Source of the DNA: an uncultured Candidatus Saccharibacteria bacterium
GTDB taxonomy: Bacteria > Patescibacteriota > Minisyncoccia > Phycocordibacterales > PALSA-1337
Assembly (NCBI GenBank): GCA_964394505.1
Contig: CAYMXR010000001.1
Coordinates: forward strand, 9,878 to 73,877
Direction of reading: 5' to 3'
DNA: 64,000 nucleotides
The position numbers were made by a program, and so were the translations under genes. Under the pieces are notes generated by a model. The model made no database searches. It saw nothing but the letters and a program-made list of their open reading frames with translations, and was not told where the DNA came from. This document shows positions 20,564-54,786 of the stretch, in pieces (within the stretch, counting starts at the first letter, position 1; each line of letters starts with the position of its first letter).

Positions 20564-20596
20564 TTTTAACGCATTTAAGCCATTAAAGTCGTCTTT

Positions 20597-21925: not shown

Positions 21926-21931
21926 CATGGA

Positions 21932-23416: not shown

Positions 23417-23419
23417 GAA

Positions 23420-33624: not shown

Positions 33625-34704
33625 CTAATGACATGCTCCACTAGCAAAAGGATTTCGTGCTCCACGAATTTCGTAATGAAGATGTGGTCCAGTGGTCATA
33701 CCAGAGATACCGATATATCCAATCTTATCACCCTTTGAGACTTTGTCCCCAACATCTACTATACTTTTCTGCATATGGGCGTATAGAGTCTGAGTTCCAT
33801 TATTATGAGAAATAACAATAAAATTACCGTAACCACCATTCCATGTTCCGTTTGATTTGCTGATCATAACCACTCCATCAGCCGAAGCTAAAATCGGAGT
33901 ACCGACTGGCGCGGCCAAATCAATGGCGTTGCGACCATGCAGAGACTGAGACAATCTTGCGCCATAAACTGGACAATTGTAGTAACCGGCATATGAAGGA
34001 AGTTTGCTAATATTTACTAGCAAAGGATCATCCGGCACAATCATTCCATTCAATGCCCGAACCACGACCGATGAAGTGGTAATGTCTCCATCAGGAATAA
34101 TTATACTTTGGCCAACGACTAGCTTGTTAGACGAATCGAGATCATTGTAATTGTAAATTTCGTTTACATCGGCCCTAAATTTCTTTGCGATGCTTACAAC
34201 CGTATCATCCTTTCGAATTGTGTATTTAACTCCAGTAACAGGCAAAATTGTTAAAGTTTGGCCGACTTTAATAGTTGATTTGCTATTGAGGTCGTTTGCC
34301 CAAAGAACGGTGTTTCTCGACACATTAAACATCTTGGCTATACTTGCAATCGTATCACCTTCTTGAACTGTATATATACTAATCAAGTTGGAAGGTTTTG
34401 TTGACTCTGACGAGTTGGTACTGGCAATATCAGCAATCAATGTCTCGCCACCAGAAACCGGTACAGCATCAAAGGCTTTGTCCGGATTAGGGTCGATATT
34501 AACGGCCGCCATAGGTAACACCGCTCTTGAAGAATAAGTGAGAGTCTCGACACTGACTTTTGCAGATGCTTTTTCTCCTGGGAAGATAGAAGAAAAAAGA
34601 CCGGCATGAACGGTCGACACTGACATCATAGCAACAACCAAAGAGCAGGAAATGACTGCAAGAAAATTGCTTAACTTATTTATCTTTTTTAGAATTAATT
34701 GCAT
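33625..34704 (-). CDS. LysM-domain M23 family peptidoglycan endopeptidase
   Basis: Two LysM repeats (YTVQEGDTIASIAKMF, YTIRKDDTVVSIAKKF) and the M23 HxxxD/HLH motifs (GPHLHYEIR). Confidence 0.8.
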   Translation of the reverse strand: MQLILKKINKLSNFLAVISCSLVVAMMSVSTVHAGLFSSIFPGEKASAKVSVETLTYSSRAVLPMAAVNIDPNPDKAFDAVPVSGGETLIADIASTNSSESTKPSNLISIYTVQEGDTIASIAKMFNVSRNTVLWANDLNSKSTIKVGQTLTILPVTGVKYTIRKDDTVVSIAKKFRADVNEIYNYNDLDSSNKLVVGQSIIIPDGDITTSSVVVRALNGMIVPDDPLLVNISKLPSYAGYYNCPVYGARLSQSLHGRNAIDLAAPVGTPILASADGVVMISKSNGTWNGGYGNFIVISHNNGTQTLYAHMQKSIVDVGDKVSKGDKIGYIGISGMTTGPHLHYEIRGARNPFASGACH

Positions 34705-37979: not shown

Positions 37980-38085
37980 GCTTTTCACTTGAATACCAAA
38001 AGATCACAGACAGATCTAGAGGGACCGCCCACTGTCCACAGAATATAATAATAAAACTGAGTAATTTGCTATAATTGTGATTAGC

Positions 38086-38973
38086 ATGGCAAAAACCTAC
38101 CCGCAGAAACAAACTTTAGTGATTTTTATTGTTTGCGTTATTTTTGTGGCTGGAACTGCGACTTACATTTACGGTTGGCCCTCAACAAAAAACTCCATAA
38201 AATATAGAAATTCCAGTATTCAGCCACAGATAGTAACAAATAATACCAGTACCGGCCCGGAGTCAGACTGGCAAAATCAATTTATTGATGGCAAAGCTAG
38301 CACAACCTTTAGATACGATCCGGTAACACAGAAGAATCCGAAAGCTGGGGTACCAATAAACCCAACTGAAGAATTGGGTCGGGATTTTTTTACAAAATAT
38401 GTCGAATTAAGACAATCAGGACTTAATACGGATGCCAAGACTGTTGATAATGTGGCTACTCAATTAATTAAGGAAAGTGCCTCCAAAATATCGAAACCAA
38501 AAGCATACACTTCCAAAGATATAACTATTGTTCCTGTGGGAACTGGAGTAAACGCAACAAAAATTTACGCTGAAAATCTAGTGGGAATTCTAAAATCATG
38601 GATGCCTGTCAAAAACGAAGCTGAGATTGCCATGGAGGCTTTCGAGGCGGGAGATATGACTTTGTTAAAAGGCATAGACACTGTAATTGCCGGATACAAA
38701 AACGCTGTAACAAGGTTATTGGAGACACCAGTTGTACAGCCCCTAGCCGAAAGTCATCTTGATCTTATAAACGCTATATCTATGCAGACATTCAATGCTC
38801 AAGGGTTAAGAAATTCTGATACAGATCCACTTACCGGTCTAGCAGCCATAAGCCTGGAAGTAAAGAGTTTGGAAGCGATTGCTACCGCTATAGGAAAGAT
38901 GCAAAGTTACTTTGCTTCATCAGGTATTGTATTTAATCTTCCAGTTTCTGGATCAATTCTTCAAAGCCAATAA
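38086..38973 (+). CDS. Hypothetical signal-anchored protein; first gene of the T4SS-like cluster
   Basis: N-terminal TM LVIFIVCVIFVAGTATYIY. The track start at 38077 is a GTG; the ATG at 38086 lies 10 nt after a TATAAT. Confidence 0.4.
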   Translation: MAKTYPQKQTLVIFIVCVIFVAGTATYIYGWPSTKNSIKYRNSSIQPQIVTNNTSTGPESDWQNQFIDGKASTTFRYDPVTQKNPKAGVPINPTEELGRDFFTKYVELRQSGLNTDAKTVDNVATQLIKESASKISKPKAYTSKDITIVPVGTGVNATKIYAENLVGILKSWMPVKNEAEIAMEAFEAGDMTLLKGIDTVIAGYKNAVTRLLETPVVQPLAESHLDLINAISMQTFNAQGLRNSDTDPLTGLAAISLEVKSLEAIATAIGKMQSYFASSGIVFNLPVSGSILQSQ

Positions 38974-38974
38974 C

Positions 38975-40576
38975 ATGTTCAATAATACAATTAGAAAACT
39001 TCAAAAACCCGTTTCCGTCATAATGATATTATCTGTACTACTAATCTCTGTACCAAAACAAACTTTTGCAATCCTCGGTGCTGGCGATACGGTAGTAGTT
39101 GTTGGAGATGTAAGTCCTACAGGAATAACAAACTTTGTCAATCATACTCTGATCAAACTCAAGGAGTTTGTGCTCGACAAAATGGCCACCATGTTAATGA
39201 AGCAAATATTGCATCAAATGACCATGGAAGTTGTTAACTGGATCAATGGAGGCTTTCAGGGAAGCCCTGCATTTCTCACAAACCCAGGAGCATTTTTTCT
39301 AGAGGCAGCCGATCAAGTAACTGGCGCTTTTTTGGCCACAAACGGCCCACTTTCTTCACTTTGTTCACCGTTTGCCATTGACATCCGATTAGCATTGGCA
39401 CTAAGTAAGACATCTATGCTTAATCAGCGATATACATGTACCCTTGGAAAAATTATCCAGGCACAAAAAAACGGTCCGGATATAATCGTGAACGGACAAG
39501 TTGTTCGCTCTTCTCAGGGTTCTATGAATGGATTCCTGCGAGGAGACTTCAATCAAGGTGGATGGCCTGCATTCATTGCTCTCACGACTGAACCCAAAAA
39601 CAATCCCTACGGGGCTTTCCTGTCTGCTGAAGCAGACTTAAACGCAAGAATAAATGCAAAACAAGCAACAATTAGGGCCGATATCCAGCTCGGCCAGGGT
39701 TTCATGTCATGGCAAAAATGTTCAGACATACCTGGAGGAACAGTTGATGCTGAAGACGATTACCAAGTTAATACAGTAGAAAGTATGGTAGGTGTTGACC
39801 CTTCAATCAACCGAAAGGTTAACAAAGACGGAACGATAACATATCAATCTTGCGAAACCCAGACACCTGGATCTGTCATTGCGGGTACCCTACAAACACA
39901 CCTCAATGTTCCAGTGGTAGAACTAGAGCTGGCAGACGACATAAATGCGATCATAAATGCTCTGTTTACAAAAATGACATCGACAATAATTTCTGGTGGA
40001 TTAGGAGCATTGAGTGGTAATTCTGGTGCGGGACCATCGTACACGCAACAAGTAATAGATGAAATAGGTACGGCACAAGTAGATCAGGGGACTTTGGACA
40101 ATTTACAGAATGATATCGGACCAGCAATTCAGAAAATCGATTCATATGTATCGATTTATAAAAAAGCCATAGAAGTGCTATCAGAAACAAAAAACAAATT
40201 TATGGTCGCCAGAAAATGCTTTAGCGATAAGTCGGCAAGCGAGTACGCAGGAAACAAGTTATCAGAAATTGATCTAATAATAAATTCTGATATCAATACA
40301 TCAATCGCCTCAATTGAGGCAAGTATCGCATCCGCAATGGCAGATAGAAAAAAGCTTGAGGATATGTCTCTTACCCTTGCCGGCACAGGTTCTCCAAAGA
40401 AAGTTCAGGCTCAGGCCGAAAGATACTCCCAATTCGTTCAAAGTGGTGGCTTGGATATTCAGTCAAAAATCCAAGTTGCCGAAACCATGCTTGAAAATGC
40501 CCAGAAAAAAGCCAAAGATCTTGATATGAAGGCCACCTTGTTACAACTTGAGTGTTACAGAATGGTTACACCGTAG
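38975..40576 (+). CDS. Hypothetical secreted protein (signal peptide)
   Basis: MFNNTIRKLQKPVSVIMILSVLLISVPKQTFA; the track start at 38912 is extended. Confidence 0.45.
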   Translation: MFNNTIRKLQKPVSVIMILSVLLISVPKQTFAILGAGDTVVVVGDVSPTGITNFVNHTLIKLKEFVLDKMATMLMKQILHQMTMEVVNWINGGFQGSPAFLTNPGAFFLEAADQVTGAFLATNGPLSSLCSPFAIDIRLALALSKTSMLNQRYTCTLGKIIQAQKNGPDIIVNGQVVRSSQGSMNGFLRGDFNQGGWPAFIALTTEPKNNPYGAFLSAEADLNARINAKQATIRADIQLGQGFMSWQKCSDIPGGTVDAEDDYQVNTVESMVGVDPSINRKVNKDGTITYQSCETQTPGSVIAGTLQTHLNVPVVELELADDINAIINALFTKMTSTIISGGLGALSGNSGAGPSYTQQVIDEIGTAQVDQGTLDNLQNDIGPAIQKIDSYVSIYKKAIEVLSETKNKFMVARKCFSDKSASEYAGNKLSEIDLIINSDINTSIASIEASIASAMADRKKLEDMSLTLAGTGSPKKVQAQAERYSQFVQSGGLDIQSKIQVAETMLENAQKKAKDLDMKATLLQLECYRMVTP

Positions 40577-40591
40577 AGATTCCATTAACCT

Positions 40592-42490
40592 ATGAAAATG
40601 AGATTACTAAAAAAATACATACCGCTCATAATCTGTTTGTTTGTCCTGCAGACGGATTTCGCTTTTGCACAAGGTGATATAGCAAAGATTTTTGCATTTA
40701 CTGGAATTGTTGAATTAGCTGACTCCGTAGTAGCCATATTTGCCAATATGGCAATGACGGTAGCGAGCTGGTTACTCATAGCTGCGGGGTATATTTTGGA
40801 CATCTCCATTCAATTGACTCTAAATATCAAAGGTTTTGTAAAAGCTACACCAGCAATCTTCACGGTTTGGAAAAGTCTAAGAGATATTACTGGTCTATTT
40901 TTCATCTTCTATTTGTTATACGCAGCAATACAGATGATGACTGGCTGGGGAAAGGAGAGTTATGGATCAACAATCAAAAATATTGTTATTGCTGGAGTCT
41001 TGATTAACTTTAGTTTCTTTATTGTCAGTTTTGGTATCGATGTCTCCAACATTACCTCCCAAGCTCTTTACGGTGCGATGGTACCAAACAAAGTTATTGT
41101 AAAAATCGACGAGAATGCCAGTATCCAAACTCTGGTGAGTAATGCAGGCAAGTCAGACATTTCAAATATCTTCATGAACACTTTGCGTATCCAATCGATA
41201 TACGACACAAAAGGAAACAAACTTGGCACAGAGATAGGGAATCCGATCAAAACAACTCTTATCGGCATCACTGGTGTAATAATGATGATTACCACTGCGG
41301 CAAGCTTTATCCTCGCAGCCTTGGCATTTATTGCCCGTCTAGTTATTTTGCTATTCCTCTTAGCATTTTCTTCTATTTGGTTTGCCAGCATGGTGATACC
41401 GCAATTAAAAGAAGCCGGCAGCAAATTCCAAGGCGCTCTTATGTCACAACTGCTTTTTATGCCAGCCTATCTGCTCCTCATGTATGTTGCTTTGTCGATA
41501 ATCAATGGTAGTACCATATTCCGTGCTGGGGTGATAGACGGCGCTGCAGCGGGTATCACCGGATCAAATTGGATAATGCCGTATATTATACTTCTGGTAA
41601 ATTTTGCCATCATAATATTTATTTTAAACCTACCCCTCGTGGTTGCGCTTAGTATGGGTGGTTATGCTACCAGCTGGTTCAAGGGCTCGATAGACAAATG
41701 GGACGCATTGAAGGTGTGGAGGAATGTTGGGGGATGGGCGAAAGATAATGCCTGGAGAGGTACCGGTGGCCGAGTCGCAAGCACATTAGCCAAAAGTGAA
41801 GGCCTTAAGAACATTGCTGCTAAAAGCAAATTTGGCGAGCTTGTCTTAAAAGGAGTGCGAGGTGCCGGTGGAAGTTACGATAAGAAACTTGCTGAACAGG
41901 TTGAAGCGAGAACTAAGTTTGCAGAATCACTTGGTGCAAATGAAGGAGAGATAATTGGAATTAAAAAGAAATACAGATCACTCATAGAAAATGCTCTTAC
42001 ACAAGAAAAGCGGGCAAGATCAATGGGTGACACGGTAGCCGCGGATAGATACAAGGCATACGCTGAAAATCTTAAAAAGCAACTTGGCGTAGACTTAGTA
42101 AATAAACAAAAAGAAAGACAAGTAAGTTATGCCGAAAGGATTTCTGATCCTGGTATTCTTAGTACATATCCTAATTTGTGGACAAAAGTTGCCAGAAAAG
42201 ACAAGGTGGCGGCAGCTAAAATCAATATCGATGTATGGCAAAAACAACTAGATAAGAAAAAAGAGGCTGTAACTAAGATAAAACAAGATCTGGAACGCAT
42301 TAAAACAGATATAAGAAGGGAAAAGGCAGCCCGCGGTGGCGTCGTCAGTAAAATAAATGAGGACGAACAAAACAAACTTGAACAAAAGTTAAAAGAAGCA
42401 ACTACTAACCCAAGTCACGGAGGTGATGTTGATGCGATGGGTACAGACGATCTTCAGGACTTGATTGATCAGGAAAAATTAACTAAATAA
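40592..42490 (+). CDS. VirB6/TrbL-like polytopic membrane protein (signal peptide, ~8 TM helices, C-terminal charged coiled-coil)
   Basis: Topology and size resemble T4SS VirB6/TrbL proteins; no sequence motif is decisive. Confidence 0.45.
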   Translation: MKMRLLKKYIPLIICLFVLQTDFAFAQGDIAKIFAFTGIVELADSVVAIFANMAMTVASWLLIAAGYILDISIQLTLNIKGFVKATPAIFTVWKSLRDITGLFFIFYLLYAAIQMMTGWGKESYGSTIKNIVIAGVLINFSFFIVSFGIDVSNITSQALYGAMVPNKVIVKIDENASIQTLVSNAGKSDISNIFMNTLRIQSIYDTKGNKLGTEIGNPIKTTLIGITGVIMMITTAASFILAALAFIARLVILLFLLAFSSIWFASMVIPQLKEAGSKFQGALMSQLLFMPAYLLLMYVALSIINGSTIFRAGVIDGAAAGITGSNWIMPYIILLVNFAIIIFILNLPLVVALSMGGYATSWFKGSIDKWDALKVWRNVGGWAKDNAWRGTGGRVASTLAKSEGLKNIAAKSKFGELVLKGVRGAGGSYDKKLAEQVEARTKFAESLGANEGEIIGIKKKYRSLIENALTQEKRARSMGDTVAADRYKAYAENLKKQLGVDLVNKQKERQVSYAERISDPGILSTYPNLWTKVARKDKVAAAKINIDVWQKQLDKKKEAVTKIKQDLERIKTDIRREKAARGGVVSKINEDEQNKLEQKLKEATTNPSHGGDVDAMGTDDLQDLIDQEKLTK

Positions 42491-42491
42491 T

Positions 42492-43709
42492 ATGGATTTT
42501 GACTATAAAACAATAGAAGAATCTTTCTCCAAACTACCAACTGAACTTCAGGGTATTTTGACATCTCCACACATTGTAGAGAAAATTAAATCGGTTGCCA
42601 CAAAAAACGGCTTACTTATAGACCAGATGTCTTCATTATTTGATATTACTAGTTATATAATATTGGGTTTGATTCCTGCATCCAAATTTTCAGAAATGCT
42701 GATAAAAGAAACTCAAGTCGACAAAGCAAAATCACTGAAAATTGCCGAGGAAATAAATAAGGAGGTCTTTTCAACAATAAAATCAATGATGCGAGAGAAG
42801 CAGGAAGTGGCTGATTTATCAAATACGCCAATACAACCTGCAATCCCGCAAAATATTAATTTAGATGGGAATGTTTCAACTATAACCAAACCATCCCACA
42901 TCACCGATCTGGAGAAAGCTGGTGGATTCACAATAGAGCATGATATGGGAAACGGGGAAGTGGGACTTGGTAGCGAAGATTTACGGGCAATGCCAATGAG
43001 GGACAAATGGTCTCCGTTTGGGCAAACTATCGTTCCAACACCGACTAAACAAACAGTCGAAGCATCTCCTGTGATTACAAAGACCATTGAGGTACAACAA
43101 CCTATTCCAAAATCAGACAATATTCCAACTGAACCATCAACACCAACCCCAGTCATAATAAAGACGATTGAAGCAAAAGAAACCTTTATCAAAGAGCCAA
43201 TAATATCCAAACTAACAGCTCCTGTCGTTGAAGCGCCTATTCAAAAGACTACAGAAGTGATTGAACAAAAAGTTGAGACAAAAATTGAACCGGAAGTTGA
43301 AGTAAAAGAAGAGGTAGTGTCAACAGTTCCAGACAATCTACCAATAGAGCCAGTCACCTTACCAAAAGCAACAGAAGAATCGCCTATACCAAAAGAGCAG
43401 ATCGTTTTACCAAAAACTGTAGGAGAGCCATCTGTGCCAATAGAACCGGAGAATAACTCGCTAGCAGAAACAATAATCAATCTACGCAGGATTAAAGATG
43501 CTACGCCAAAACCACAAATCGAACAGATGCCAACAATTGAACAGCCAACGAAATCAGAGTCAAACACTAAAAAAGAACAAACACCCCCTCCACAACCCGC
43601 TCCAGAATTAATAGTTCCAGAGAAAATAAAATTAAATCCTGGTATACCAAAACCAATCGAACAGCAAAGACCTAGATCGTCTGATCCATACAGAGAACCG
43701 ATAAACTAA
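42492..43709 (+). CDS. Hypothetical protein with a Pro/Glu/Val-rich repetitive C-terminal half
   Basis: 405-aa ORF translationally coupled to the preceding gene. Confidence 0.4.
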   Translation: MDFDYKTIEESFSKLPTELQGILTSPHIVEKIKSVATKNGLLIDQMSSLFDITSYIILGLIPASKFSEMLIKETQVDKAKSLKIAEEINKEVFSTIKSMMREKQEVADLSNTPIQPAIPQNINLDGNVSTITKPSHITDLEKAGGFTIEHDMGNGEVGLGSEDLRAMPMRDKWSPFGQTIVPTPTKQTVEASPVITKTIEVQQPIPKSDNIPTEPSTPTPVIIKTIEAKETFIKEPIISKLTAPVVEAPIQKTTEVIEQKVETKIEPEVEVKEEVVSTVPDNLPIEPVTLPKATEESPIPKEQIVLPKTVGEPSVPIEPENNSLAETIINLRRIKDATPKPQIEQMPTIEQPTKSESNTKKEQTPPPQPAPELIVPEKIKLNPGIPKPIEQQRPRSSDPYREPIN

Positions 43710-43752
43710 ATTCCTTCGCGAGAAAATGATATTTGCAGTATAATATACACAA

Positions 43753-44181
43753 ATGCGATTCCAAGTTCCTCAATTTATAGAAATGGAAGATAAAATCTTC
43801 GGACCACTTACACTCAAACAGTTTATCTATTTGGCTGGCGGAGGAGGTTTGTCATTCGTCGTTTATGTATTCTTAGACAGCCTCATATTATCAATCATCC
43901 CAATTGCTTTAATTGTCGGCATATCTACTTCTTTGGCTTTTTACAAGATAAACAACAAACCCCTTATTTCTATTCTCGAATCAGCTTTTTATTATTACTT
44001 CGGCAACAAATTGTATATCTGGAAAAAGGAAGCTAATGCAAAAAAGGTCAGCGATCCCCAAGCAAATTCAAATAGCTATGCTTCGATCATGGTTCCAAAA
44101 ATTTCCGATAGCAAACTCAAAGACTTAACTTGGAGTTTAGACATAAAAGAAAGTATATATTCCAACAAAAAGCAACAATAA
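43753..44181 (+). CDS. Small two-TM membrane protein, VirB3-like by position and topology
   Basis: Hairpin TM pair; immediately upstream of the VirB4 genes. Confidence 0.35.
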   Translation: MRFQVPQFIEMEDKIFGPLTLKQFIYLAGGGGLSFVVYVFLDSLILSIIPIALIVGISTSLAFYKINNKPLISILESAFYYYFGNKLYIWKKEANAKKVSDPQANSNSYASIMVPKISDSKLKDLTWSLDIKESIYSNKKQQ

Positions 44182-44182
44182 A

Positions 44183-44824
44183 ATGGCCAATTCATCAAAA
44201 GCAACTCAAGAGTTCGTGCCCATCAAGGAGATCCGTGATGGTATTGTGATACTCAAAAATGGGGGAATGAGAAGCCTTGTACTTGTTTCATCTTTGAATT
44301 TCGCACTCAAATCTGAGGATGAGCAAAGCTCAATACTTATGCAGTTTCAAAATTTTCTAAATTCACTTGATTTCTCAGTACAAATCTTTATTCAATCAAA
44401 AAAACTGGACATAAGGCCGTATGTAGCTTTACTAGAAGATCGATATAAAGACCAAGTAAGTGAGCTTATGAAAATCCAGGTCAGAGAATACATAGAATTC
44501 GTCAAGACCTTTGTCGAAAATACAAGCATTATGTCAAAAAGTTTTTTTGTAGTCGTACCTTACGATCCAGCGGCGATAAACATTTCCAAGAATCCTATTT
44601 CTAAATTTTTTCCAGGGAAAAACAATAACCAGACTCAATCAGAAAACGCTGACGAGCAATTCAACGAATACCGAAGCCAGCTAGAGCAAAGAGTAGCGGT
44701 AGTCGAACAGGGTTTAGTCAGGTGTGGTATCAGAACCGCAGAACTCGGTACCGAGGAAGTGGTAGAATTGTATTACAAACTTTTCAATCCCGGAGAAACA
44801 GAGAAACCGATCCAAATAACATAA
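44183..44824 (+). CDS. VirB4/TrbE/CagE-family N-terminal domain as a separate ORF
   Basis: ATQEFVPIKEIRDGIVILKNGGMRSLVLVSSLNF resembles the VirB4 N-terminus. The stop is 4 nt before the next ATG, in a different frame. Confidence 0.55.
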   Translation: MANSSKATQEFVPIKEIRDGIVILKNGGMRSLVLVSSLNFALKSEDEQSSILMQFQNFLNSLDFSVQIFIQSKKLDIRPYVALLEDRYKDQVSELMKIQVREYIEFVKTFVENTSIMSKSFFVVVPYDPAAINISKNPISKFFPGKNNNQTQSENADEQFNEYRSQLEQRVAVVEQGLVRCGIRTAELGTEEVVELYYKLFNPGETEKPIQIT

Positions 44825-44828
44825 AATT

Positions 44829-46643
44829 ATGTCTTTCATTTCAAAATTACTAGGAAAAAAAGAAGAATCGCCAATAGTCTCTGTTCTCCCGGAGGAGATA
44901 TACCAGGCTGGGGTCTTGGAACTCCGAGATGTTATAGCCCCATCAGCTCTCAAGGTAAGCCCCAAGGATCTAAACCTTGGAGAAAAGGTTGGTCGAACAC
45001 TCTTTGTGATTTCATACCCCCGTTTTGTGAACGAAGGGTGGTTTGCCCCGATCATCAACCTAGACAAAGTCTTCAATGTTTCAATATTCATTCACCCCGT
45101 CGATACCGCCAAAATTCTTCGTCATTTCCAAAAGAAAGTTGCCGAAGTTCAAAGCCAAATTTCAAGAAGGGAAGAGAAGGGTTTGGTCCGAGAACCTTCT
45201 TTGGATACTGCATATCAAGATCTAGAATCTCTTCGCGATCAATTGATGCAGGCACAAGAACATCTATTTGATGTCGGTGTTTACATCACAATATTTGCCG
45301 ATTCCGACAATGAGCTCGACAAACTCGAATCAGAGATAAAATCAATTCTTGAGTCGAAGCTAGTCTATGTAAAACCTGCTTTGTTCCAACAAGAACAAGG
45401 TTTCAAAAGCGTTTTGCCGATCGGCGACGATCTCTTGGCAGTTCATTCCAAACTCAACTCTTCACCACTTTCTTCTTTGTTTCCTTTTGTTTCTTTTGAT
45501 CTTACTTCCGACAAGGGAATACTTTACGGCATAAACCGCCACAACTCTTCATTGGTTCTTTTTGATCGTTATTCATTAGAAAATTACAATTCTGTAACAT
45601 TTGCTGTTGCTGGTTCTGGTAAATCTTACTGCACAAAACTTGAGATTCTTCGAACTTTGATGTTCGACACTGATGTCATAGTTATCGATCCAGAAAAAGA
45701 ATACGAATATATGGCCTCGGCTACTGGTGGAAAATATTTCAACATTTCACTCAATTCAGAACATCACATCAACCCATTTGATCTACCAATACCTAGAGAA
45801 GACGAATCCGCCAGTGATGTTTTGCGTTCAAATATCATCAACCTTGTGGGTTTGTTTCGTATCATGCTTGGAGGTTTGTCACAAGAAGAAGATGCTATCA
45901 TTGACCGAGCAATCACCGAGACTTATGCCTTGAAAGACATTACTCCCGAATCAGATTTTCACAATGTAGAACCTCCTCTATTGTCAGATTTCGAGCTTGT
46001 CTTGGCTGGAATGGAAGGAGCAGATTCCTTGGTGCAAAGATTATCCAAATATACAAAAGGCACTTGGGCAGGTTTCATAAACCGACCATCAAATGTTGAT
46101 ATCAACAAAAAATTTGTCGTCTTCTCTTTACGAGACATGGAGGATGAACTCAAACCTGTGGCAATGTACATCGTCACTCACTATATCTGGAACGCTATTA
46201 GAAAAAACCTAAAGAAGAGACTTCTGGTCATAGACGAAGCTTGGTGGATGATGAAATCCGAAGATACCGCTTCATTCCTTTTTGGTCTAGCCAAAAGAGG
46301 CAGAAAATATTTCCTTGGTTTGGCCACTATCACCCAAGATGTTGATGATTTCCTGAAATCTCCTTACGGTTTACCAATTCTTACAAACTCTTCTATCCAA
46401 ATATTGCTCAAACAATCTCCGACTGTGATAGATCACATTCAGCAGACATTCCACCTTACCGATGAAGAAAAATACCTGTTATTGGAGTCGGATGTGGGGG
46501 AGGGTATATTCTTCGTTGGCCTCAAACATGTCGCTATAAAAATAGTCGCTTCATATACAGAAGACCAGATAATCACCACTAATCCTGCTCAAGTCATACA
46601 AATAGCTCAAGCAAAAAAAGAACTAGAAAATCTTGGTAAGTAA
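44829..46643 (+). CDS. virB4: VirB4-like type IV secretion ATPase (C-terminal NTPase portion)
   Basis: Walker A AVAGSGKSY, Walker B LLVIDEAWWM, conserved YPRFVNEGWFAPI region, and the TITQDVDDF motif. Confidence 0.8.
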   Translation: MSFISKLLGKKEESPIVSVLPEEIYQAGVLELRDVIAPSALKVSPKDLNLGEKVGRTLFVISYPRFVNEGWFAPIINLDKVFNVSIFIHPVDTAKILRHFQKKVAEVQSQISRREEKGLVREPSLDTAYQDLESLRDQLMQAQEHLFDVGVYITIFADSDNELDKLESEIKSILESKLVYVKPALFQQEQGFKSVLPIGDDLLAVHSKLNSSPLSSLFPFVSFDLTSDKGILYGINRHNSSLVLFDRYSLENYNSVTFAVAGSGKSYCTKLEILRTLMFDTDVIVIDPEKEYEYMASATGGKYFNISLNSEHHINPFDLPIPREDESASDVLRSNIINLVGLFRIMLGGLSQEEDAIIDRAITETYALKDITPESDFHNVEPPLLSDFELVLAGMEGADSLVQRLSKYTKGTWAGFINRPSNVDINKKFVVFSLRDMEDELKPVAMYIVTHYIWNAIRKNLKKRLLVIDEAWWMMKSEDTASFLFGLAKRGRKYFLGLATITQDVDDFLKSPYGLPILTNSSIQILLKQSPTVIDHIQQTFHLTDEEKYLLLESDVGEGIFFVGLKHVAIKIVASYTEDQIITTNPAQVIQIAQAKKELENLGK

Positions 46644-46663
46644 AATTCTGATATAATCTGAGT

Positions 46664-47149
46664 ATGTCTACGAAGGGAAACAGATCAAAGGGAATTGGTT
46701 GGATAATCATGTATATTTTTACAGGAGCGGTTGACTTATTCCAGATCTTCGTTTCCGCTACTGGTATCGGAATCGTCGCAAGTGAATTTGTTGAATTTGC
46801 AATGCCCTTTATTTTGATATTTGTTTTTCAGTTTATAATCAAAGCCTCCGTCATTACCAAACCAGACCGACTAGGATCTATTGCCGGTGCTTTGGGTCTA
46901 GGCGCCCTCACCGGCGGGATCGCGCCATTTTGGATTGTTGATGTTTGGTATATTCAGAGAAGTGTAAAAAAAGAAGATGCCGAATACAATAGGCAAGAAC
47001 AAAAGCAGCAACTATTGACCAACAACACTAGACAGACACTTTACCGAGACGGAGTAAGGCAACCACAAAGACTAGGACAAGGTGAGGGCAACGATTCTGG
47101 ACCACAATACAAAGAGGGTATACGGACACCAAACGGGGGACTGAAATAG
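46664..47149 (+). CDS. Hypothetical small polytopic membrane protein
   Basis: 3-4 TM helices. Confidence 0.4.
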   Translation: MSTKGNRSKGIGWIIMYIFTGAVDLFQIFVSATGIGIVASEFVEFAMPFILIFVFQFIIKASVITKPDRLGSIAGALGLGALTGGIAPFWIVDVWYIQRSVKKEDAEYNRQEQKQQLLTNNTRQTLYRDGVRQPQRLGQGEGNDSGPQYKEGIRTPNGGLK

Positions 47150-47209
47150 GGATGTGTCACATCCCCCCCTTCAATTGATTAAAGTGCGATTTGCCAGTAA
47201 AATATAGCA

Positions 47210-48211
47210 ATGAATCGTTTGCTATTTTTTATAACATTGATCTTTATAAGCACATTTTCGATTGTCTCGACTAGCGCCCAAGGGCTTCCCATAAACGGTG
47301 GAGGGATAATTTTGACAATGTCTACCGAGAGTCCTGTCCCCGGTCAAAAAATAACCATTACGGCCAGAAGTTACACTATAGACATCAATTCATCAGAAGT
47401 AACATGGTCAATTGATGACAAAATCATTCAAAAAGGATTTGGCTTAACAAAAATGGAAACGATCGCTCCTCCCCTTGGTAAAAAGGTTACAGTGACTGTT
47501 TCGGCCTCTACCAATACAGGAATAAAAATTTCTGACTCTATAACCATAAGCCCCGGTTCAGTCGATATGATAATAGAAGGGGATGGTTATGTTACGCCAC
47601 TTTTCCAAGGCAAATTACCATTATCATACCAAAACACTTTTCGTATAATCGCTGTGCCACACCTAGCAGATTCCAAAGGAGTCGAATACAAAGCGAAAGA
47701 TTTGGTTTATCAATGGAAAAGGAATAGCCGAGTTATAGAAGAAGATAGCGGTTATGGAAAACAAACCTTATCTTTGACAGGAGATATTGTGCCAAGAGAA
47801 GCGACGATAAGTGTCACGGTTTCAACAAGAGATGGTAAAGAGAGAACTACTGGTTATATCTCTGTCCCTTATATTTCTCCTTCTGTATTATTTTATGAAG
47901 ATGACTATTTGTATGGACCTCTTTTCAATAAAACTATAAAAGATACAATTATTATTGGCAAAGAAAAAGAACTTAATGTCTTGATGGCACCTTTTGGTTT
48001 CAATAAACCAACAAAAGGTCTTGGTGATTTGAATCTGCTTTGGACGATCAATGGTTATGAACATCCAGAACTATCTTCAAACGAATCAATTACCCTCCGA
48101 GCTCCAGCGGGTATGTCTGGGTCATCACGAATTGGTCTAGAAATCACTAATGATAAAGATATTCTTCAAAATGCTGATAATGGCTTTTCCATAAAATTTA
48201 ATTCAAAATGA
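47210..48211 (+). CDS. Hypothetical secreted protein (signal peptide)
   Basis: MNRLLFFITLIFISTFSIVSTSAQG. Confidence 0.4.
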   Translation: MNRLLFFITLIFISTFSIVSTSAQGLPINGGGIILTMSTESPVPGQKITITARSYTIDINSSEVTWSIDDKIIQKGFGLTKMETIAPPLGKKVTVTVSASTNTGIKISDSITISPGSVDMIIEGDGYVTPLFQGKLPLSYQNTFRIIAVPHLADSKGVEYKAKDLVYQWKRNSRVIEEDSGYGKQTLSLTGDIVPREATISVTVSTRDGKERTTGYISVPYISPSVLFYEDDYLYGPLFNKTIKDTIIIGKEKELNVLMAPFGFNKPTKGLGDLNLLWTINGYEHPELSSNESITLRAPAGMSGSSRIGLEITNDKDILQNADNGFSIKFNSK

Positions 48212-49419
48212 AAAATCTAAATAAAATCTTACTGGTGGTTGCAATGATTTCGATCTTGGGGTCTTCATATTCATGTTTGGCACAATCTGATGCAAAATAT
48301 ACTGTACTTGCTCCTTTACCTTGTATAGAAAGCGCAGAAACTACATATATTGACAGCCAGGGCCAATCCAGAACCAATCCAGGTATCACTTGCGAAGGTA
48401 ATGGTTCGGTTGCAACTGAAGTAGATTTCAAAACTTATGTGCAATACACCATGAATCTTCTCATTGCTCTATCTGCTGTCGTAGCTGTGGTAATGTTGGT
48501 TTGGGGAGGTATAGAGTACATGTTCACAAGCTCTTTTTCTTCAAAAAAGAGCGGTTTGGAGCGAGCGCAAAACGCTTTGGTTGGTCTATTACTTGTACTC
48601 ACCTCCTACATCATTCTCCGCACCGTAGACCCTAGGTTGGTAGAGATACCAAATACTCTAGTGCCACAATTGACGGTAAGGGAGGAGTTACGGGAAGATG
48701 TGTTTGACTCATTCACGACTCAATTAGAAAATGAAATTACTGAGTATGACAAAAATCGAACTAAGCTCGGTGAAGAGCTGACTGATATTAGACGAAAAAG
48801 AGCGGAGCTAGCAGAAAAAGAAAAAGATCTTCAAAGAAGGATCGCCTCTTCTACAGATCCTGTAGAGATTAATAAGTTAAAGGTGGAACTGGAAAAGACA
48901 ATGGAAGAAAATATTCAAAAGAAAGCGGTTGATATTGTAAAAAAGGCAACAATCGCAATTAATGGCAACTTGGATGAAATAGCAAAGATTGTGCTTGAGG
49001 GGAGGGATTACCAACACCAAGACAAGTTTGATGTGATAAGCCGAAATATGGGACTACTCAACAAGCACCTTGCAAATATGCAGATAGAGTATGCAGTCGC
49101 GACCGAAGAGTTAGGCAAGATTAGAGTGTTTGACAGCACATCTTTAAGGGACCAGAGGAATCATTACACAACGATCGGTAGACTAGACATGTTGAATTTA
49201 TCAATCGGTAGTATCACTGGCTCAAATAATTATTACGATGTAATTCTAACCAATGGAACCAAAGATAAGAAAAGGGGTCCTGTACTGAAAGAGGAAATCC
49301 AGACTGAAATCAACAGTCTGCAAAGATTTATCGACGCAACAACCGATACTGAACTTAAACAAAAAATGGTGACCAAAAAAGCCCAGGTAGAAGCAGCACT
49401 AAAAAATAAACTTCCATAA
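48208..49419 (+). CDS. Hypothetical secreted protein with a Cys-containing N-domain, a two-TM hairpin and a long coiled-coil; 4-nt ATGA overlap with the upstream gene
   Basis: Signal peptide plus the MNLLIALSAVVAVVMLVWGGIEY / ALVGLLLVLTSYIIL hydrophobic pair. Confidence 0.4.
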   Translation: MKNLNKILLVVAMISILGSSYSCLAQSDAKYTVLAPLPCIESAETTYIDSQGQSRTNPGITCEGNGSVATEVDFKTYVQYTMNLLIALSAVVAVVMLVWGGIEYMFTSSFSSKKSGLERAQNALVGLLLVLTSYIILRTVDPRLVEIPNTLVPQLTVREELREDVFDSFTTQLENEITEYDKNRTKLGEELTDIRRKRAELAEKEKDLQRRIASSTDPVEINKLKVELEKTMEENIQKKAVDIVKKATIAINGNLDEIAKIVLEGRDYQHQDKFDVISRNMGLLNKHLANMQIEYAVATEELGKIRVFDSTSLRDQRNHYTTIGRLDMLNLSIGSITGSNNYYDVILTNGTKDKKRGPVLKEEIQTEINSLQRFIDATTDTELKQKMVTKKAQVEAALKNKLP

Positions 49420-49427
49420 AAAAATAA

Positions 49428-50759
49428 ATGCGAAACTCGACCAAAATAATCTGGATAATATTAATCATACTGATCATTTCGGTTGCTTTGTATTGGTACT
49501 TCTTCTTTTATGGCCCAGGCAATCAGATAGAACCTATTGTAAATGATCCAAACACACCTTCTGGTTTCGTACCTCTAAATAGCAATAATCCAACAAACAA
49601 TCCGGTAAGCACGACCGAACCCGATATCGATTCCGCAACGACGACGGATAATGGCCTAGACTTGCAAACGATCGAGGGTACATTGCCAAAATTGCGTTTA
49701 CTTAGCAACACACCGATCGGTGGTTATGGAGCAAGTACAACCGCAAGTACAACCGTTGTCCGTTGGATCGATAGAGGGAGGGGTAATATCCTAGAAGCCA
49801 AGGGTGATTCCGGTGAAATTGTCATATTGTCAAACACTCTTTTGCCACGAATGTATGAGGGGGTTTGGAATAAGAACATAACCGCTTTCATCGGATCATT
49901 AATCAATAATAATGCCGACACCCCATCAACTGTCTATGCAAAACTTTATTCCCAAGCAAGCACAACAAGCAAAGTCGCAACCTCAACCTCAATTGCAACA
50001 ACAACTGATGAAAAAAATACCAATGTTACTCCTTATTATATAAAAGGTAAAAACTTACCAGAAAACATCATAGATTATGCCGTATCACCAGGAGGTGACA
50101 AAGTATTCCTTCTAATAAAAGAATCCGGTCAAGGTGTCGGGTATGTGGCAAATTTCGATGGAACAAAACTAATTCAAATATTCAATCAACCGCTCACAGA
50201 AGTCAATGTTGATTGGCCAGAAGAAAACACCCTAACCATAGCAACCAAAGGGTCAGCAAACCATCAAGGTTTTCTATATTTTGTTAACGCAAAAACTGGA
50301 ATATGGCAAAAGGTTCTTGGTCCAATATATGGACTTAGCGCCAAGGTAAGCAGGGACGCAAAATATATTCTTGTCTCAACCATCAATGCCGACAAGGAAC
50401 CAGTAATAAAAATATACAAAGTAGGAACAAGCGCACCAATCGACACCATGATCAGGACTTTGGCAGATAAATGCGTCTGGGGCAACAACTACAAAGAACT
50501 GGTTTACTGCGCAGTACCATCAAATACAGAAAACGCCACTTATCCCGATGATTGGTACAAAGGTTCCGTTGACTTTAGTGACAAGATTTTACAATACAAC
50601 ACAAAAGACGAAACTATTTCGGTCGTCTCTCCTATACTAGATCAAACCGATAGACTTATAGACGCTTTCAATCTTGGAGTCGACGACCGTGATGATTTTC
50701 TATTCTTTATGAACAAGCACGATCTATCGTTTTGGTCATTGGACCTTAGTGCAGAGTAA
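49428..50759 (+). CDS. Hypothetical membrane-anchored beta-rich extracytoplasmic protein
   Basis: N-terminal TM IIWIILIILIISVALYWYFFFY. Confidence 0.4.
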   Translation: MRNSTKIIWIILIILIISVALYWYFFFYGPGNQIEPIVNDPNTPSGFVPLNSNNPTNNPVSTTEPDIDSATTTDNGLDLQTIEGTLPKLRLLSNTPIGGYGASTTASTTVVRWIDRGRGNILEAKGDSGEIVILSNTLLPRMYEGVWNKNITAFIGSLINNNADTPSTVYAKLYSQASTTSKVATSTSIATTTDEKNTNVTPYYIKGKNLPENIIDYAVSPGGDKVFLLIKESGQGVGYVANFDGTKLIQIFNQPLTEVNVDWPEENTLTIATKGSANHQGFLYFVNAKTGIWQKVLGPIYGLSAKVSRDAKYILVSTINADKEPVIKIYKVGTSAPIDTMIRTLADKCVWGNNYKELVYCAVPSNTENATYPDDWYKGSVDFSDKILQYNTKDETISVVSPILDQTDRLIDAFNLGVDDRDDFLFFMNKHDLSFWSLDLSAE

Positions 50760-52116: not shown

Positions 52117-52152
52117 AGTTTGCAGATTTATAAACAGGTATATACTAGTGTC

Positions 52153-53493
52153 ATGAACGATCACGCAAAAATGTGGCAAACTGCTTTAATCGAAATTCAA
52201 ACCGATGTTTCGCAAGCAAACTTTTCTACATGGTTCAAAGAAACCAATATCGTCAAAGAAGAAGAGGGGGTTGTTTATCTCGGCGTGCCAAACTCTTTTA
52301 CGCAAGAGTGGCTGTACAAAAAATTTCATAATTCAATACTAAGAATTTTGCGCCAACTAAACGAACGAGTCCGCGCCCTTGAATATGTAATAATAAAAGA
52401 AGACAAAAAGGGCGAACATTCCAAAAAAAGCCCCCTCGCTCCAACTTTATCCATACCACTTCAAGATTTTTATATCAACAAAGAAGATAATCTGAACCCA
52501 AGATACACTTTTGATAATTTCGTTGTTGGCCCATACAACGAGCTGGCTCACGCCGCCTCACATACTGTGATCAAAAGCCCAGGCAGGGTATACAACCCAC
52601 TGTTTGTTTATGGCTCGACAGGTAGAGGCAAAACTCACCTCATACAGGCGATAGGAAATGAGATCAAAAAAACCCACCCTGACAAAAAAGTCTTTTACCT
52701 AACCTCCGAGCGTTTCGGTTCAGAGTTCTTTGTCGCCATCCAAGAAGGAAAGGTGCAATCATTCAAAGACCGTTACAGAAAATATGATGTGATGATCATG
52801 GATGATGTACAGTTTTTCTCCAACAAAGATAAGTTTCAAGAGGAATTATTCCATTTTTTTAACACTTTCCATGACACAGGTAGGCAGCTCATATTTTCTT
52901 CAGATCGCCATCCAAACATCATTCCTGGACTTGAAGACCGTTTGCGTGGTCGCTTTAGTGTCGGAATGATCGTCGACATTCCGGAACCAGACAACGAATC
53001 CAGGGCCGCTATCGTCAAAACCAAGTGCGCTCTACATTCTATAACCCTTTCCGACGAATCTATTGGTCTCATAACCGCAGCAATAGAGGACAATATCAGG
53101 GAAATAGAGGGTATCATCAATGTTATTGCTTGCCAAACCCAACTCCGTAACCGCGAACTAACGATCAATGAGATAAAAAACATCCTAAAAAACAGCAGTA
53201 AACCAAAAAAGAATGTTTTGGTTAAAGATATAATAAAAACCATAGCAGAGTTCTACAATACCGACGAAGAAAGTATCCTCAACAAAACTAGACGCAAGGA
53301 GGTGGTAAGACCAAGACAGGTGATCATGTACATACTTAGAGAGGATTTTGGAGTATCTTTTCCTTCTATAGGAGAAAAGCTTGGGGGAAGAGATCATACA
53401 ACCGTTATTCACTCTTATGAAAAAATAAAGGGTGAAGTAAAAAATGACACGGTCTTATCGCAAGAGATAGCACAAATTCGATCCATGCTATAA
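52153..53493 (+). CDS. dnaA: Chromosomal replication initiator DnaA
   Basis: Walker A GSTGRGKTHL and a C-terminal DNA-binding domain. The ATG at 52153 lies 6 nt after TATACT (leaderless); the track start at 52120 is a TTG. Confidence 0.9.
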   Translation: MNDHAKMWQTALIEIQTDVSQANFSTWFKETNIVKEEEGVVYLGVPNSFTQEWLYKKFHNSILRILRQLNERVRALEYVIIKEDKKGEHSKKSPLAPTLSIPLQDFYINKEDNLNPRYTFDNFVVGPYNELAHAASHTVIKSPGRVYNPLFVYGSTGRGKTHLIQAIGNEIKKTHPDKKVFYLTSERFGSEFFVAIQEGKVQSFKDRYRKYDVMIMDDVQFFSNKDKFQEELFHFFNTFHDTGRQLIFSSDRHPNIIPGLEDRLRGRFSVGMIVDIPEPDNESRAAIVKTKCALHSITLSDESIGLITAAIEDNIREIEGIINVIACQTQLRNRELTINEIKNILKNSSKPKKNVLVKDIIKTIAEFYNTDEESILNKTRRKEVVRPRQVIMYILREDFGVSFPSIGEKLGGRDHTTVIHSYEKIKGEVKNDTVLSQEIAQIRSML

Positions 53494-53516
53494 CCTTGAT
53501 AAGTTGTTATTAAGAC

Positions 53517-53662
53517 GGGGGATAATTTGGGGATTAGTGGTTAACAATTCGGACGGTGGTGGTTTGTTAAATTTTCAAAAACAATTTATTAACATAGTAA
53601 TAAACTAAGGAGAAAAAAATATGGCTAGCAATAAGGATAAATAAGCTATCAACATATCCACT
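53517..53662. promoter_or_regulatory. Candidate oriC: AT-rich dnaA-dnaN spacer with four 7/9 DnaA-box matches (GGGGGATAA 53517-53525, TAAGGATAA 53632-53640, CTATCAACA 53646-53654, TATCCACT 53655-53662)
   Basis: Box matches plus the conserved rpmH-rnpA-yidC/dnaA-dnaN gene order. Confidence 0.45.
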
Positions 53663-53679
53663 CTCCTAATAGTAATAAA

Positions 53680-54786
53680 ATGAAAATTGAATTAAATATA
53701 CAGAAACTTAAAAACGCGGTGACTGCTGTGGAAAAGATTGCAGGAAAACACATAACCCTTCCTGTGTTATCGTGTATTTTAATAGAAGTAAAAAACAATA
53801 TAGCTGTTTTTAAATCAACAAACCTTGATGTTGGTATAGAAGTATCTGTTCCTGTAAAATCAAGCGAAGATGGAATAATTGCCGCTCCTGCCCACACCCT
53901 TTCCGCTTTCGTCTCTCAAATAGTTGAAAACGATCAAATAGTGAAACTTGACGACTCTTCAGGAAATCTAAAAATTACAACAACAAAAACAACAGGGACG
54001 ATAAAAATTCAAGCATTTGATGATTTTCCTTCAATACCAAGGGTCACTGATGGTAAAAAAATTGTATTGTCTTCAGAAATCTTTCTTAAGGGTTTGAAGT
54101 CGGTTTGGTACAGTTCTTCTGTTTCGAGTGTTAAACCGGAGCTTTCTAGTGTTTTTATATACAAAGATGAAGGAAATTTGGTCTTTGTTGCTACCGACTC
54201 TTTTCGTTTGGCGGAAAGAAAAGTAAAACTACCAAATACAGCCGACATTAGTGATATTTTGATTCCATTCAAAAACATTCCAGACCTAAGTCGGGTTTTG
54301 GAGAACATGAACGAAGATATTGAGGTTACTATAAACAAAAACCTAATCTCCTTTGAAGGAAAGGGAATATATGCCGTTTCCAGGCTTATCGATGGTATTT
54401 TCCCAGATTACAGACAGATCATTCCAAAAAATTACAGCACGGAGGTTATTCTACTAAAACAGGATCTAACCAACGCTTTAAAAGTCTCAAACATTTTTTC
54501 AGATAAATTTAACCAAGTTCGTTTTGTAATAGACCCCAAAGCCAAAATATTCAACATACAGACAAAAAATAGCGACATAGGGGAGAATGTTACTTCCTTG
54601 GACGCTTCATTGACTGGAGAGGTTTTGGAGATTAATTTCAATTACAAATACATTGTAGATTGTTTCCAATCAATAGACGCGGACAGTGTTTCCTTATCTT
54701 TGGGTGGTATAAGTAAACCGATGGTGATAAGGCCAATATCCGGAGACCAATCGTTTATGTATCTAGTTATGCCAATGAATCGATAA
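53680..54786 (+). CDS. dnaN: DNA polymerase III beta sliding clamp
   Basis: 368 aa with a three-domain clamp-like profile, directly after dnaA. Confidence 0.9.
   Translation: MKIELNIQKLKNAVTAVEKIAGKHITLPVLSCILIEVKNNIAVFKSTNLDVGIEVSVPVKSSEDGIIAAPAHTLSAFVSQIVENDQIVKLDDSSGNLKITTTKTTGTIKIQAFDDFPSIPRVTDGKKIVLSSEIFLKGLKSVWYSSSVSSVKPELSSVFIYKDEGNLVFVATDSFRLAERKVKLPNTADISDILIPFKNIPDLSRVLENMNEDIEVTINKNLISFEGKGIYAVSRLIDGIFPDYRQIIPKNYSTEVILLKQDLTNALKVSNIFSDKFNQVRFVIDPKAKIFNIQTKNSDIGENVTSLDASLTGEVLEINFNYKYIVDCFQSIDADSVSLSLGGISKPMVIRPISGDQSFMYLVMPMNR

Follow-up and report, generated by a model that had tools for sequence, protein, structure and literature searches.

In the current work, a cluster of eleven genes (g1 to g11) was analysed within a 64-kb stretch of DNA (64,000 nucleotides of contig CAYMXR010000001.1, referred to as the window) from an uncultured Patescibacteria bacterium of the Paceibacteria (Parcubacteria) type. 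An earlier note on this DNA had described the cluster as a chromosomal, non-conjugative type IV secretion system (T4SS) of a reduced-genome organism, a description which matches the T4SSs published for Patescibacteria (PMC12102498, PMC10633639). The eleven co-directional, tightly packed open reading frames (ORFs) behind that description were all recovered, and in the ORF list with a revised g1 start they occupy positions 38086-50759 of the plus strand, with successive intergenic gaps from g1 to g11 of 1, 15, 1, 43, 1, 4, 20, 60, -4 and 8 nt. The longest-ORF starts of g1 (GTG 38077) and g2 (TTG 38912) are probably wrong, as both the alignments and gene calls made independently point to ATG 38086 (M4) and ATG 38975, respectively; with these starts, an apparent 62-nt overlap between the two genes disappears and is replaced by a 1-nt gap. 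The genetic code is the standard bacterial one with a normal mix of stop codons, and the GC content of the cluster (0.38-0.41, versus 0.36-0.45 across the window) reveals no compositional anomaly.

The core-gene flanks that had been proposed (ksgA, yidC) were identified as uvrD-ksgA on one side and yidC-rnpA-dnaA-dnaN on the other. The upstream flank contains, in order, genes for PNPase, a 445-amino-acid (aa) ORF without family, a DksA-type zinc finger, a ComM-type Mg-chelatase-like ATPase and a LysM-M23 peptidase (minus strand), followed by uvrD and ksgA; the downstream flank contains yidC and rnpA on the minus strand, then dnaA, dnaN and the gene for a class A penicillin-binding protein. Relatives were obtained by a one-genome-per-species scan, which returned more than 591 loci with a close VirB4 relative, of which 80 were fetched (L001-L080), and a locus from a more distant lineage (L084) was used besides these. 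Pfam scans covered 41 ORFs of the window and left out about a dozen short ORFs (<180 aa).

The VirB4 ATPase of the system is encoded by g7 (44829-46643) and is of the monoderm type (MPF_FATA/CD1110), the corresponding profile match being to NCBIfam conju_CD1110 (375 bits, E 7e-112, above the cut-off of 325), together with a match to Pfam P-loop_TraG (2e-25). Its Walker A (AVAGSGKS, residues 259-266) and Walker B (LLVIDEAW, residues 468-475) motifs are both kept in 79 of 80 orthologues. From its identity of 79-96% to hundreds of Patescibacteria VirB4 proteins we infer that g7 belongs to the Patescibacteria VirB4 clade.

Immediately before it, g6 (44183-44824) specifies a TrsD/TraD-like protein, homologous to the N-terminal domain of VirB4 but free-standing, which matches NCBIfam VirB4_plasma (4.5e-12, model positions 99-233), TrsD (4.4e-5) and positions 2-88 of the CD1110 VirB4, and for which a precomputed Pfam match to PF26593 (TraC-like) is available; its median identity among relatives is 65%. 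VirB4 had previously been considered to be split across 44183-46643, and two ORFs that jointly tile a full VirB4 are indeed present, yet this is no frameshift or broken gene: every one of the 79 relatives that carry both has g6 and g7 as separate ORFs, and they constitute a TrsD and VirB4 pair as in pGO1-type plasmids. A genetic-code artefact behind the split was ruled out by the standard code, by the TAA located between g6 and g7 and by the retention of the split in 79 loci, and separate TrsD-like and VirB4 ORFs have already been published for the Patescibacteria T4SS (PMC12102498). Upstream of this pair, such that g6 lies between it and g7, g5 (43753-44181) encodes the VirB3-like protein with two transmembrane segments that had been proposed to precede VirB4: it matches Pfam PrgI (E 4.1e-9, 37.3 bits, cut-off 27), contains two hydrophobic segments and displays a median identity of 57% across 76 loci.

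The polytopic channel subunit is represented by g3 (40592-42490), an extended VirB6/TrbL-like protein for which a VirB6/TrbL-like identity with a signal peptide, a coiled-coil tail and eight transmembrane helices had been proposed; all of these features stand except for the number of hydrophobic or transmembrane helices, which is approximately seven. The protein thus consists of a cleavable signal peptide, these helices and a charged coiled-coil tail of ~230 aa predicted to be cytoplasmic. Direct Pfam matches to g3 itself are absent, and an orthologue-alignment profile compared with PDB sequences returned only coiled-coil noise from the tail; in turn, TrbL/VirB6 matches are present in 4 of 29 orthologues scanned, database homologues carry TrbL_3 or TrbL, and in a Foldseek search the TrwI chains obtained the highest probabilities, so that a VirB6 fold is well supported. 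When compared with the solved VirB6-family structures, R388 TrwI and Legionella DotA, the identity is only 9%, and g3 differs from these in its Sec signal peptide and its long tail (an 'extended VirB6'), and in that no VirB5 partner was found.

A VirB2-like T4SS pilin domain with a C-terminal extension is encoded by g10 (48208-49419). Its match to Pfam T4SS_pilin (PF18895; 9.3e-6, 26.1 bits) falls just below the cut-off of 26.6, but the family is matched by 30 of the 31 sequences scanned (30 orthologues and the window copy; best E 4.7e-10), and TrbC/VirB2 is additionally matched by one sequence of the g10 family. Further features of the protein are a Sec signal peptide, conservation of the mature end as YTxLxPLP and a two-transmembrane hairpin at residues 84-140; g10 had been suggested as a pilin or VirB2 analogue with a Cys-rich domain, of which the former is upheld by the T4SS_pilin family matches, while 'Cys-rich' was an overstatement for the three Cys residues ahead of the hairpin. 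The C-terminal extension (~265 aa) is helical and variable, the total length of orthologues ranging from 151 to 628 aa, and by analogy with VirB2 topology it would be located on the outside of the cell. T4SS pilins known so far are short. The neighbours of VirB4 are not unrelated enzymes, but comprise a PrgI/VirB3 protein, a protein with a VirB6 fold and a VirB2-like pilin.

No relaxase, VirD4/TcpA coupling protein or VirB11 was found by Pfam scans of the 41 ORFs of the 64-kb window, about a dozen ORFs of less than 180 aa being unscanned. Their absence had been claimed before, as had that of an integrase; in this last respect the claim needs correction, considering that a XerC/D-like tyrosine recombinase is encoded in the window (24960-25880, minus strand). 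This recombinase, the only one found, has a XerC/D architecture and is encoded 12 kb upstream, with housekeeping genes between it and the cluster; an element-type integrase was not found. Two T2SSE-family PilB-like ATPases (2746-4548, with an MshEN domain and beside PilC, and 60665-62356) look like type IV pilus genes rather than T4SS parts, judging from their domains.

All 80 fetched relatives bearing this VirB4 are metagenome-assembled genomes of Patescibacteria (labelled Paceibacterota, Parcubacteria, Zambryskibacteria, Taylorbacteria, or generically) with a VirB4 identity of 79-96%. In the relatives fetched, the cluster is conserved as a unit, which had been an expectation of the earlier note, and at the same chromosomal position, with the block uvrD-ksgA-[g1...g11]-yidC-rnpA-dnaA-dnaN being syntenic wherever the contigs are long enough. 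This block is also intact in the distant lineage L084, where the LysM-M23 peptidase and ComM genes occupy the same places (L084 1-1585). Across the 80 species-level relatives, the median identity amounts to 81% for VirB4, 65% for TrsD, 59% for DnaA, 58% for UvrD, 57% for PrgI, 53% for DnaN, 50% for KsgA and 42% for YidC, and to 27-34% for g1, g2, g3, g9, g10 and g11. VirB4 is clearly better conserved than DnaA and DnaN, which are encoded a few kb away (52120-54786), and these values (81% versus 59% and 53%), in combination with the syntenic block, therefore indicate a vertically inherited core machine instead of a mobile element. In these alignments the motor is more tightly constrained than the replication initiator and the exposed parts diverge fast, a pattern that fits an indispensable, vertically inherited machine whose outer parts track changing hosts, and not a mobile element in decay.

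Comparison with published systems places the cluster among those of the Patescibacteria clade. Quinonero-Coronel et al. (2025) surveyed 3,035 genomes and found 2,425 VirB4 proteins that group as a Patescibacteria clade within MPF_FATA, the systems having TrsD, PrgI/VirB3, VirB6 and PF18895 pilins as components; relaxases are rare, type IV coupling proteins (T4CPs) are rarely nearby, and VirB8 is almost never found and was not detected outside class ABY1 (PMC12102498). In the same survey, the virB4 neighbourhood of Paceibacteria is enriched in dnaA, dnaN, rnpA, ksgA and rpmH (PMC12102498). A 2025 review regards it as established that the Patescibacteria T4SSs are a new branch within the superfamily (PMC12857230). 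The cluster shares with these systems a monoderm-type VirB4, a separate TrsD, PrgI/VirB3, VirB6 and a PF18895 VirB2-like pilin, and likewise lies in the chromosome of a Patescibacteria host near dnaA, dnaN, rnpA and ksgA with neither a relaxase nor a nearby T4CP.

The corresponding locus of the saccharibacterium S. epibionticum (SEML1_0006-0019) was found by Wang et al. (2023) to be essential for epibiotic growth by transposon sequencing; it resembles Gram-positive conjugative T4SSs, contains a pilin array and is without coupling and relaxase proteins, and its gene table lists VirB6 ... PrgI, a TrsD-like protein and VirB4, adjoining dnaA (PMC10633639). The core order VirB6 ... PrgI-TrsD-VirB4 is common to both loci, but the one pilin encoded in the cluster has a long C-terminal extension, where S. 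epibionticum has an array of 6 short pilins; neither a lysozyme nor an NTF2-like protein is encoded within the cluster, and its accessory set (g1, g2, g4, g8, g9 and g11) is different and unannotated.

Among the MPF_FATA T4SSs of Firmicutes (pGO1/pSK41 trs, pIP501 tra, pCF10 prg and the CTn2/CD1110-type integrative conjugative elements, ICEs), the same order of VirB3-like, TrsD-like and VirB4 proteins is encountered, the CD1110 ICE family being the best match of g7, and in both cases the envelope is monoderm and VirB7, VirB9 and VirB10 are absent. Unlike these systems, the cluster was found to have no relaxase, T4CP, VirB1-type hydrolase, VirB8-like protein or surface adhesin, it possesses a VirB2-like pilin that is absent from the Gram-positive systems, and it is chromosome-fixed and vertically inherited. 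With H. pylori ComB and crenarchaeal Ced it has in common the lack of a coupling protein and relaxase, a VirB4-family ATPase as sole motor and a chromosomal, non-mobile state; in contrast, ComB is a diderm system that has VirB7-10 and works with ComEC, and Ced employs CedA membrane proteins, which are not seen here.

Taken together, we regard it as highly probable that the cluster is a chromosomal, vertically inherited T4SS of the Patescibacteria clade in the Paceibacteria layout, derived from monoderm MPF_FATA conjugation machinery minus its DNA-processing parts, which would operate in host contact through the mechanism proposed further below. The system as such, which is carried near dnaA by most of the ultrasmall Patescibacteria (CPR bacteria), is already known from papers of 2023-2025 and only its unassigned accessory genes are new ground; what is presented here for the first time is the g4 family with its DPYRE tail, the conserved leaderless-looking promoters and the probable replication origin at ~30 kb from dnaA.

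Direct Pfam and NCBIfam scans of g1, g2, g3, g4, g8, g9 and g11 gave nothing above noise, and the earlier statement that most components have no assignable family applies, as far as sequence comparison goes, to six of the eleven proteins (g1, g2, g4, g8, g9 and g11). The most distinctive of these is g4 (42492-43709), a soluble protein with neither a transmembrane segment nor a signal peptide and with no Pfam or PDB match, which is composed of a helical N-domain of ~100 aa, a hypervariable Pro-rich linker and a C-terminal tail, DPYREPIN, that hardly varies. The DPYRE motif occurs once per locus in 58 loci, in each case in the g4 orthologue; 57 of these copies lie within 2-4 residues of the stop codon, and for the remaining copy the distance is 19 residues. 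All synonymous codons are used for this tail, which implies that selection acts on the peptide. An exhaustive search with the N-domain among 1.84 billion representatives retrieved 1,906 clusters (50% identity) at E <=1e-3 and 200 at <=1e-10 (a word-indexed search with the N-domain profile gave 2 matches only). Members of this family have one to three copies of the ~100-aa helical domain, followed by a Pro-rich linker that differs greatly in length, and approximately 140 of the best 150 members terminate in D-x-Y-[RHK]-E, or a slight variation on it, plus a few residues, DPYRE being the version found in most.

Such a design, in which a domain is connected by a flexible linker to a conserved tail, recalls the tails of SSB and FtsZ, and by this analogy suggests that the g4 tail may be a docking peptide or a C-terminal translocation signal. 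In the loci examined, g4 is always located between VirB6 and VirB3, including the distant lineage L084 (10001-10510); in one example from the PMC12102498 table, the gene at this position is unassigned. Kinship of the g4 N-domain with the g3 family was rejected by profile-profile comparison, which shows no relation, and a literature search on the DPYRE motif found nothing relevant.

The remaining accessory proteins are predicted to be membrane-bound or secreted. g1 (38086-38973) encodes a bitopic membrane protein with an N-terminal anchor (a single hydrophobic segment at residues 13-31) and a mostly helical outside domain of ~260 aa; it has no family and no match in Pfam, NCBIfam or PDB sequences, including by orthologue profile against PDB, although bacterial TSP3 repeats occur in 8 g1 orthologues, and it is syntenic in 46 loci with a median identity of 27%. 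g2 (38975-40576) is a secreted orphan-family protein of 533 aa with a signal peptide, a Cys-containing N-domain and a C-terminal helical bundle. The protein shows 30 invariant columns in 67 sequences, conserved Cys residues and the WINxGFxGSPxF motif of the N-domain among them, and its 214 homologues are all 'hypothetical', with essentially none having a Pfam domain. The AlphaFold 2 model of g2 has a predicted local distance difference test (pLDDT) score of 68, and is confident only in the C-terminal bundle and one beta region, with low values in the most conserved domain. Foldseek against PDB and profile comparison with PDB sequences returned generic helical bundles only, and a VirB5-like reading of the g2 bundle is not supported, given that Foldseek gave no meaningful match.

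A small membrane protein with at least two transmembrane segments and a charged tail is encoded by g8 (46664-47149); it has no family match and is lineage-restricted, being detectable in only 12 of 80 loci. g9 (47210-48211), present in 69 of 80 loci, specifies a secreted beta-rich protein with a signal peptide, of which four orthologues match BiPBP_C and two match Ig_3, all weakly, alongside weak immunoglobulin (Ig)-like matches to PDB sequences. Its segments 26-118 and 119-222 are alike (z 4.1), and g9 probably consists of tandem Ig-like or beta-sandwich domains. Finally, g11 (49428-50759) is a bitopic membrane protein with one N-terminal transmembrane segment, found in 52 loci at a median identity of 31%, whose profile matches several TolB chains among PDB sequences, although weakly (E 0.008-0.8), and one orthologue of which matches DUF5050; its outside domain is probably a TolB-like beta-propeller.

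Potential promoters of the cluster were located by direct inspection for -10 boxes, considering that sigma-70 and terminator consensus scans remained at shuffle level and were uninformative. An extended -10-like box, TGCTATAAT, lies on the plus strand at 38067-38075, 10 nt before the g1 ATG, and is the putative promoter of a g1-g4 unit; a similar box is present in 8 of the 14 loci with a placeable g1 start. A second extended -10-like box, CAGTATAAT (43736-43744, plus strand), is located 8 nt before the g5 ATG and represents the putative leaderless promoter of a g5-g7 unit, and a third -10-like box, CAGTAAAAT (47195-47203, plus strand), found 6 nt before the g9 ATG and conserved in 14 of 16 loci, that of a g9-g11 unit. 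Before g8, a TATAAT box (46652-46657, plus strand) resembles the g9 box. At positions -16 to -10, a TAnWAT box precedes g5 in 48 of 75 loci as compared to 4 of 67 for the internal gene g7. Based on this conservation before g5 and g9 relative to internal g7, the cluster is probably transcribed as three to four leaderless or near-leaderless units (g1-g4, g5-g7, g8 and g9-g11). No Shine-Dalgarno sequence was seen at the genes preceded by -10-like boxes. Elsewhere in the window, TAnAAT boxes, often with a TG extension, are situated 6-10 nt before the ATG of many first operon genes, for example at 18000, 19994, 21932, 25880, 30314, 31661, 32091 and 51526, which suggests widespread leaderless transcription in this lineage.

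Perfect DnaA boxes are located at 20340, 20617 and 23470, and five boxes with one mismatch between 20.6 and 21.5 kb, among tRNA genes (20340-23478); a sign change in GC skew coincides with a switch in gene orientation at ~21.8-22.0 kb. These two observations point to a probable oriC at ~30 kb from dnaA (52120-53493), and not in the rnpA-dnaA spacer. The T4SS cluster would then be positioned 16-29 kb from the probable origin, co-oriented with replication and sharing its strand with the majority of the genes that follow this origin downstream. An ORF at 21123-21806 (minus strand) overlaps the cluster of DnaA boxes and may not be a real gene.

This ORF is one of six of 207-445 aa in the window that have no Pfam family, the others being located at 30314-31651 (+), 9307-10176 (+), 17099-17923 (-), 18000-18851 (+) and 27046-27669 (-); the 445-aa ORF (30314-31651) has a leaderless-type promoter and precedes the DksA-type zinc-finger gene. 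Type IV pilus genes are found at both ends of the window, with PilC (T2SSF) and PilB with MshEN at 1412-4548 (-) and the second PilB-type ATPase at 60665-62356 (-). A membrane H+-translocating pyrophosphatase is encoded at 7155-9140 (+; Pfam H_PPase, E 1.8e-274), and is likely a means of membrane energisation; the Patescibacteria generally lack a respiratory chain according to the papers cited here. An Rfam scan returned four tRNAs only. Two genes that form part of the conserved block upstream of the cluster are the ComM-type Mg-chelatase-like ATPase (32091-33614), found just upstream of the peptidase and uvrD-ksgA, and the peptidoglycan peptidase itself (33625-34704, minus strand), in which Pfam recognises Peptidase_M23 (2.7e-30) and LysM (1.7e-23). 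ComM is a transformation-associated helicase in other bacteria. The divergent peptidase gene lies 3.4 kb upstream of the cluster, before uvrD-ksgA; VirB1-profile matches with M23/LysM domains were reported to be associated with virB4 mainly in Paceibacteria (PMC12102498), and the protein is a candidate stand-in for the missing VirB1 hydrolase.

In the mechanism that we propose, g3 (VirB6) and g5 (VirB3) would form a membrane platform, on the cytoplasmic face of which g6 and g7 (TrsD and VirB4) would dock. TrsD together with VirB4, as the sole ATPase, would extract the g10 pilin from the membrane and assemble it by polymerisation as a pilus or tube. The wall-spanning and host-touching part would be built or decorated by g1, g2, g9 and g11, fast-evolving proteins that are exported or anchored and that would take the place of VirB8, VirB1 and VirB5. 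The g4 protein would be an adaptor in the cytoplasm, bound to the motor through its C-terminal DPYRE peptide, and the upstream LysM-M23 peptidase may open the wall. The assembled structure would serve as a contact-dependent conduit to the host bacterium that is needed for growth of the epibiont. As a tentative extension, the accessory genes of the Paceibacteria layout could be true lineage-specific T4SS subunits, with g4, as an adaptor not recognised before, being the clearest case: its tail, by docking on TrsD/VirB4 or acting as a translocation signal, would perform some of the functions of the coupling protein that is missing.

Concerning the direction of transport, pilus-mediated host contact with uptake of host macromolecules is slightly favoured over effector export, in view of the lack of a coupling protein and relaxase, the analogy with ComB and Ced, and the dependence on host nucleotides. 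Several points weigh against the interpretation as a whole. The preference for import over export is founded on analogy (ComB, Ced) and one preprint, and the essentiality data were obtained in Saccharimonadia, which is another class than Paceibacteria. T4CP-like genes have been reported elsewhere in most Patescibacteria genomes (PMC12102498), and with a view of 64 kb a distant coupling protein is possible. No VirB8-like protein was detected in the cluster with Pfam, NCBIfam or PDB sequences, the bitopic g1 and g11 looking helical and propeller-like by sequence, respectively, and no VirB1-type hydrolase was detected within 38086-50759 with Pfam or NCBIfam. The g2 model is poor (pLDDT 68), and the roles of g1, g2, g4, g8, g9 and g11 are assigned from position and conservation only.

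Of the alternatives, the one that survives best, although we hold it to be doubtful, is that of a dedicated nucleic-acid import machine comparable to H. pylori ComB or archaeal Ced, which, as a VirB4-only T4SS, would acquire host DNA or RNA, or that present in the medium, as a source of nucleotides. Such a function was proposed by the 2025 survey (PMC12102498) and by a 2026 preprint, in which tubular structures and uptake of host RNA are described for a cultured relative and T4SS pili are suggested (bioRxiv 10.64898/2026.06.21.733656). It agrees with the absence of a T4CP and relaxase, as in ComB and Ced, and with the lack of nucleotide synthesis in Patescibacteria. The weak match of g7 to NCBIfam CedB (2e-8) is confined to the shared P-loop region, and although the ComM-type and UvrD helicase genes are located in the same conserved block, these adjoining DNA-repair genes may be origin-proximal housekeeping. 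ComB moreover feeds ComEC, but in S. epibionticum comEC is dispensable while the T4SS is essential (PMC12857230), which makes a ComB-style route via ComEC unlikely as the essential function.

An effector-export or killing system, which would manipulate or permeabilise the host with substrates among g2, g9 or g4, is judged unlikely, and marginally more so than nucleic-acid import. Protein export was suggested as an option for the S. epibionticum system by Wang et al. (PMC10633639). The soluble, disordered g4 has a conserved C-terminal motif resembling the C-terminal signals of T4SS substrates, and the outside-facing components diverge fast. Nearly all known effector translocators, however, need a T4CP, and the vicinity of the cluster contains none; with their Sec signal peptides, g2 and g9 could leave the cell independently of a T4SS, and domain scans found no toxin or enzyme domain in any cluster protein. 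A decayed ICE or plasmid remnant, to which the VirB4 of Firmicutes ICE type (CD1110 family), a PrgI-TrsD-VirB4 order that we take to mirror trsC-trsD-trsE of pGO1-type plasmids, and the tyrosine recombinase 12 kb upstream might point, is extremely improbable, as a mobile element is ruled out by synteny (dozens of species-level genomes have the cluster at this one place, between ksgA and yidC), by conservation (a VirB4 more conserved than DnaA, with intact Walker motifs in 79 of 80 orthologues) and by composition (GC like that of the flanks), with no relaxase or T4CP and a XerC/D-like recombinase that lies beyond housekeeping genes.

The Patescibacteria represent a large share of bacterial diversity and are host-dependent, and their T4SS is the first to have been shown to be essential for the growth of its owner. 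The window provides a clean and complete example of this system from the Paceibacteria, with nothing new at system level, and the six partners without a family, including g4 with its conserved tail peptide, constitute concrete targets for experiments.

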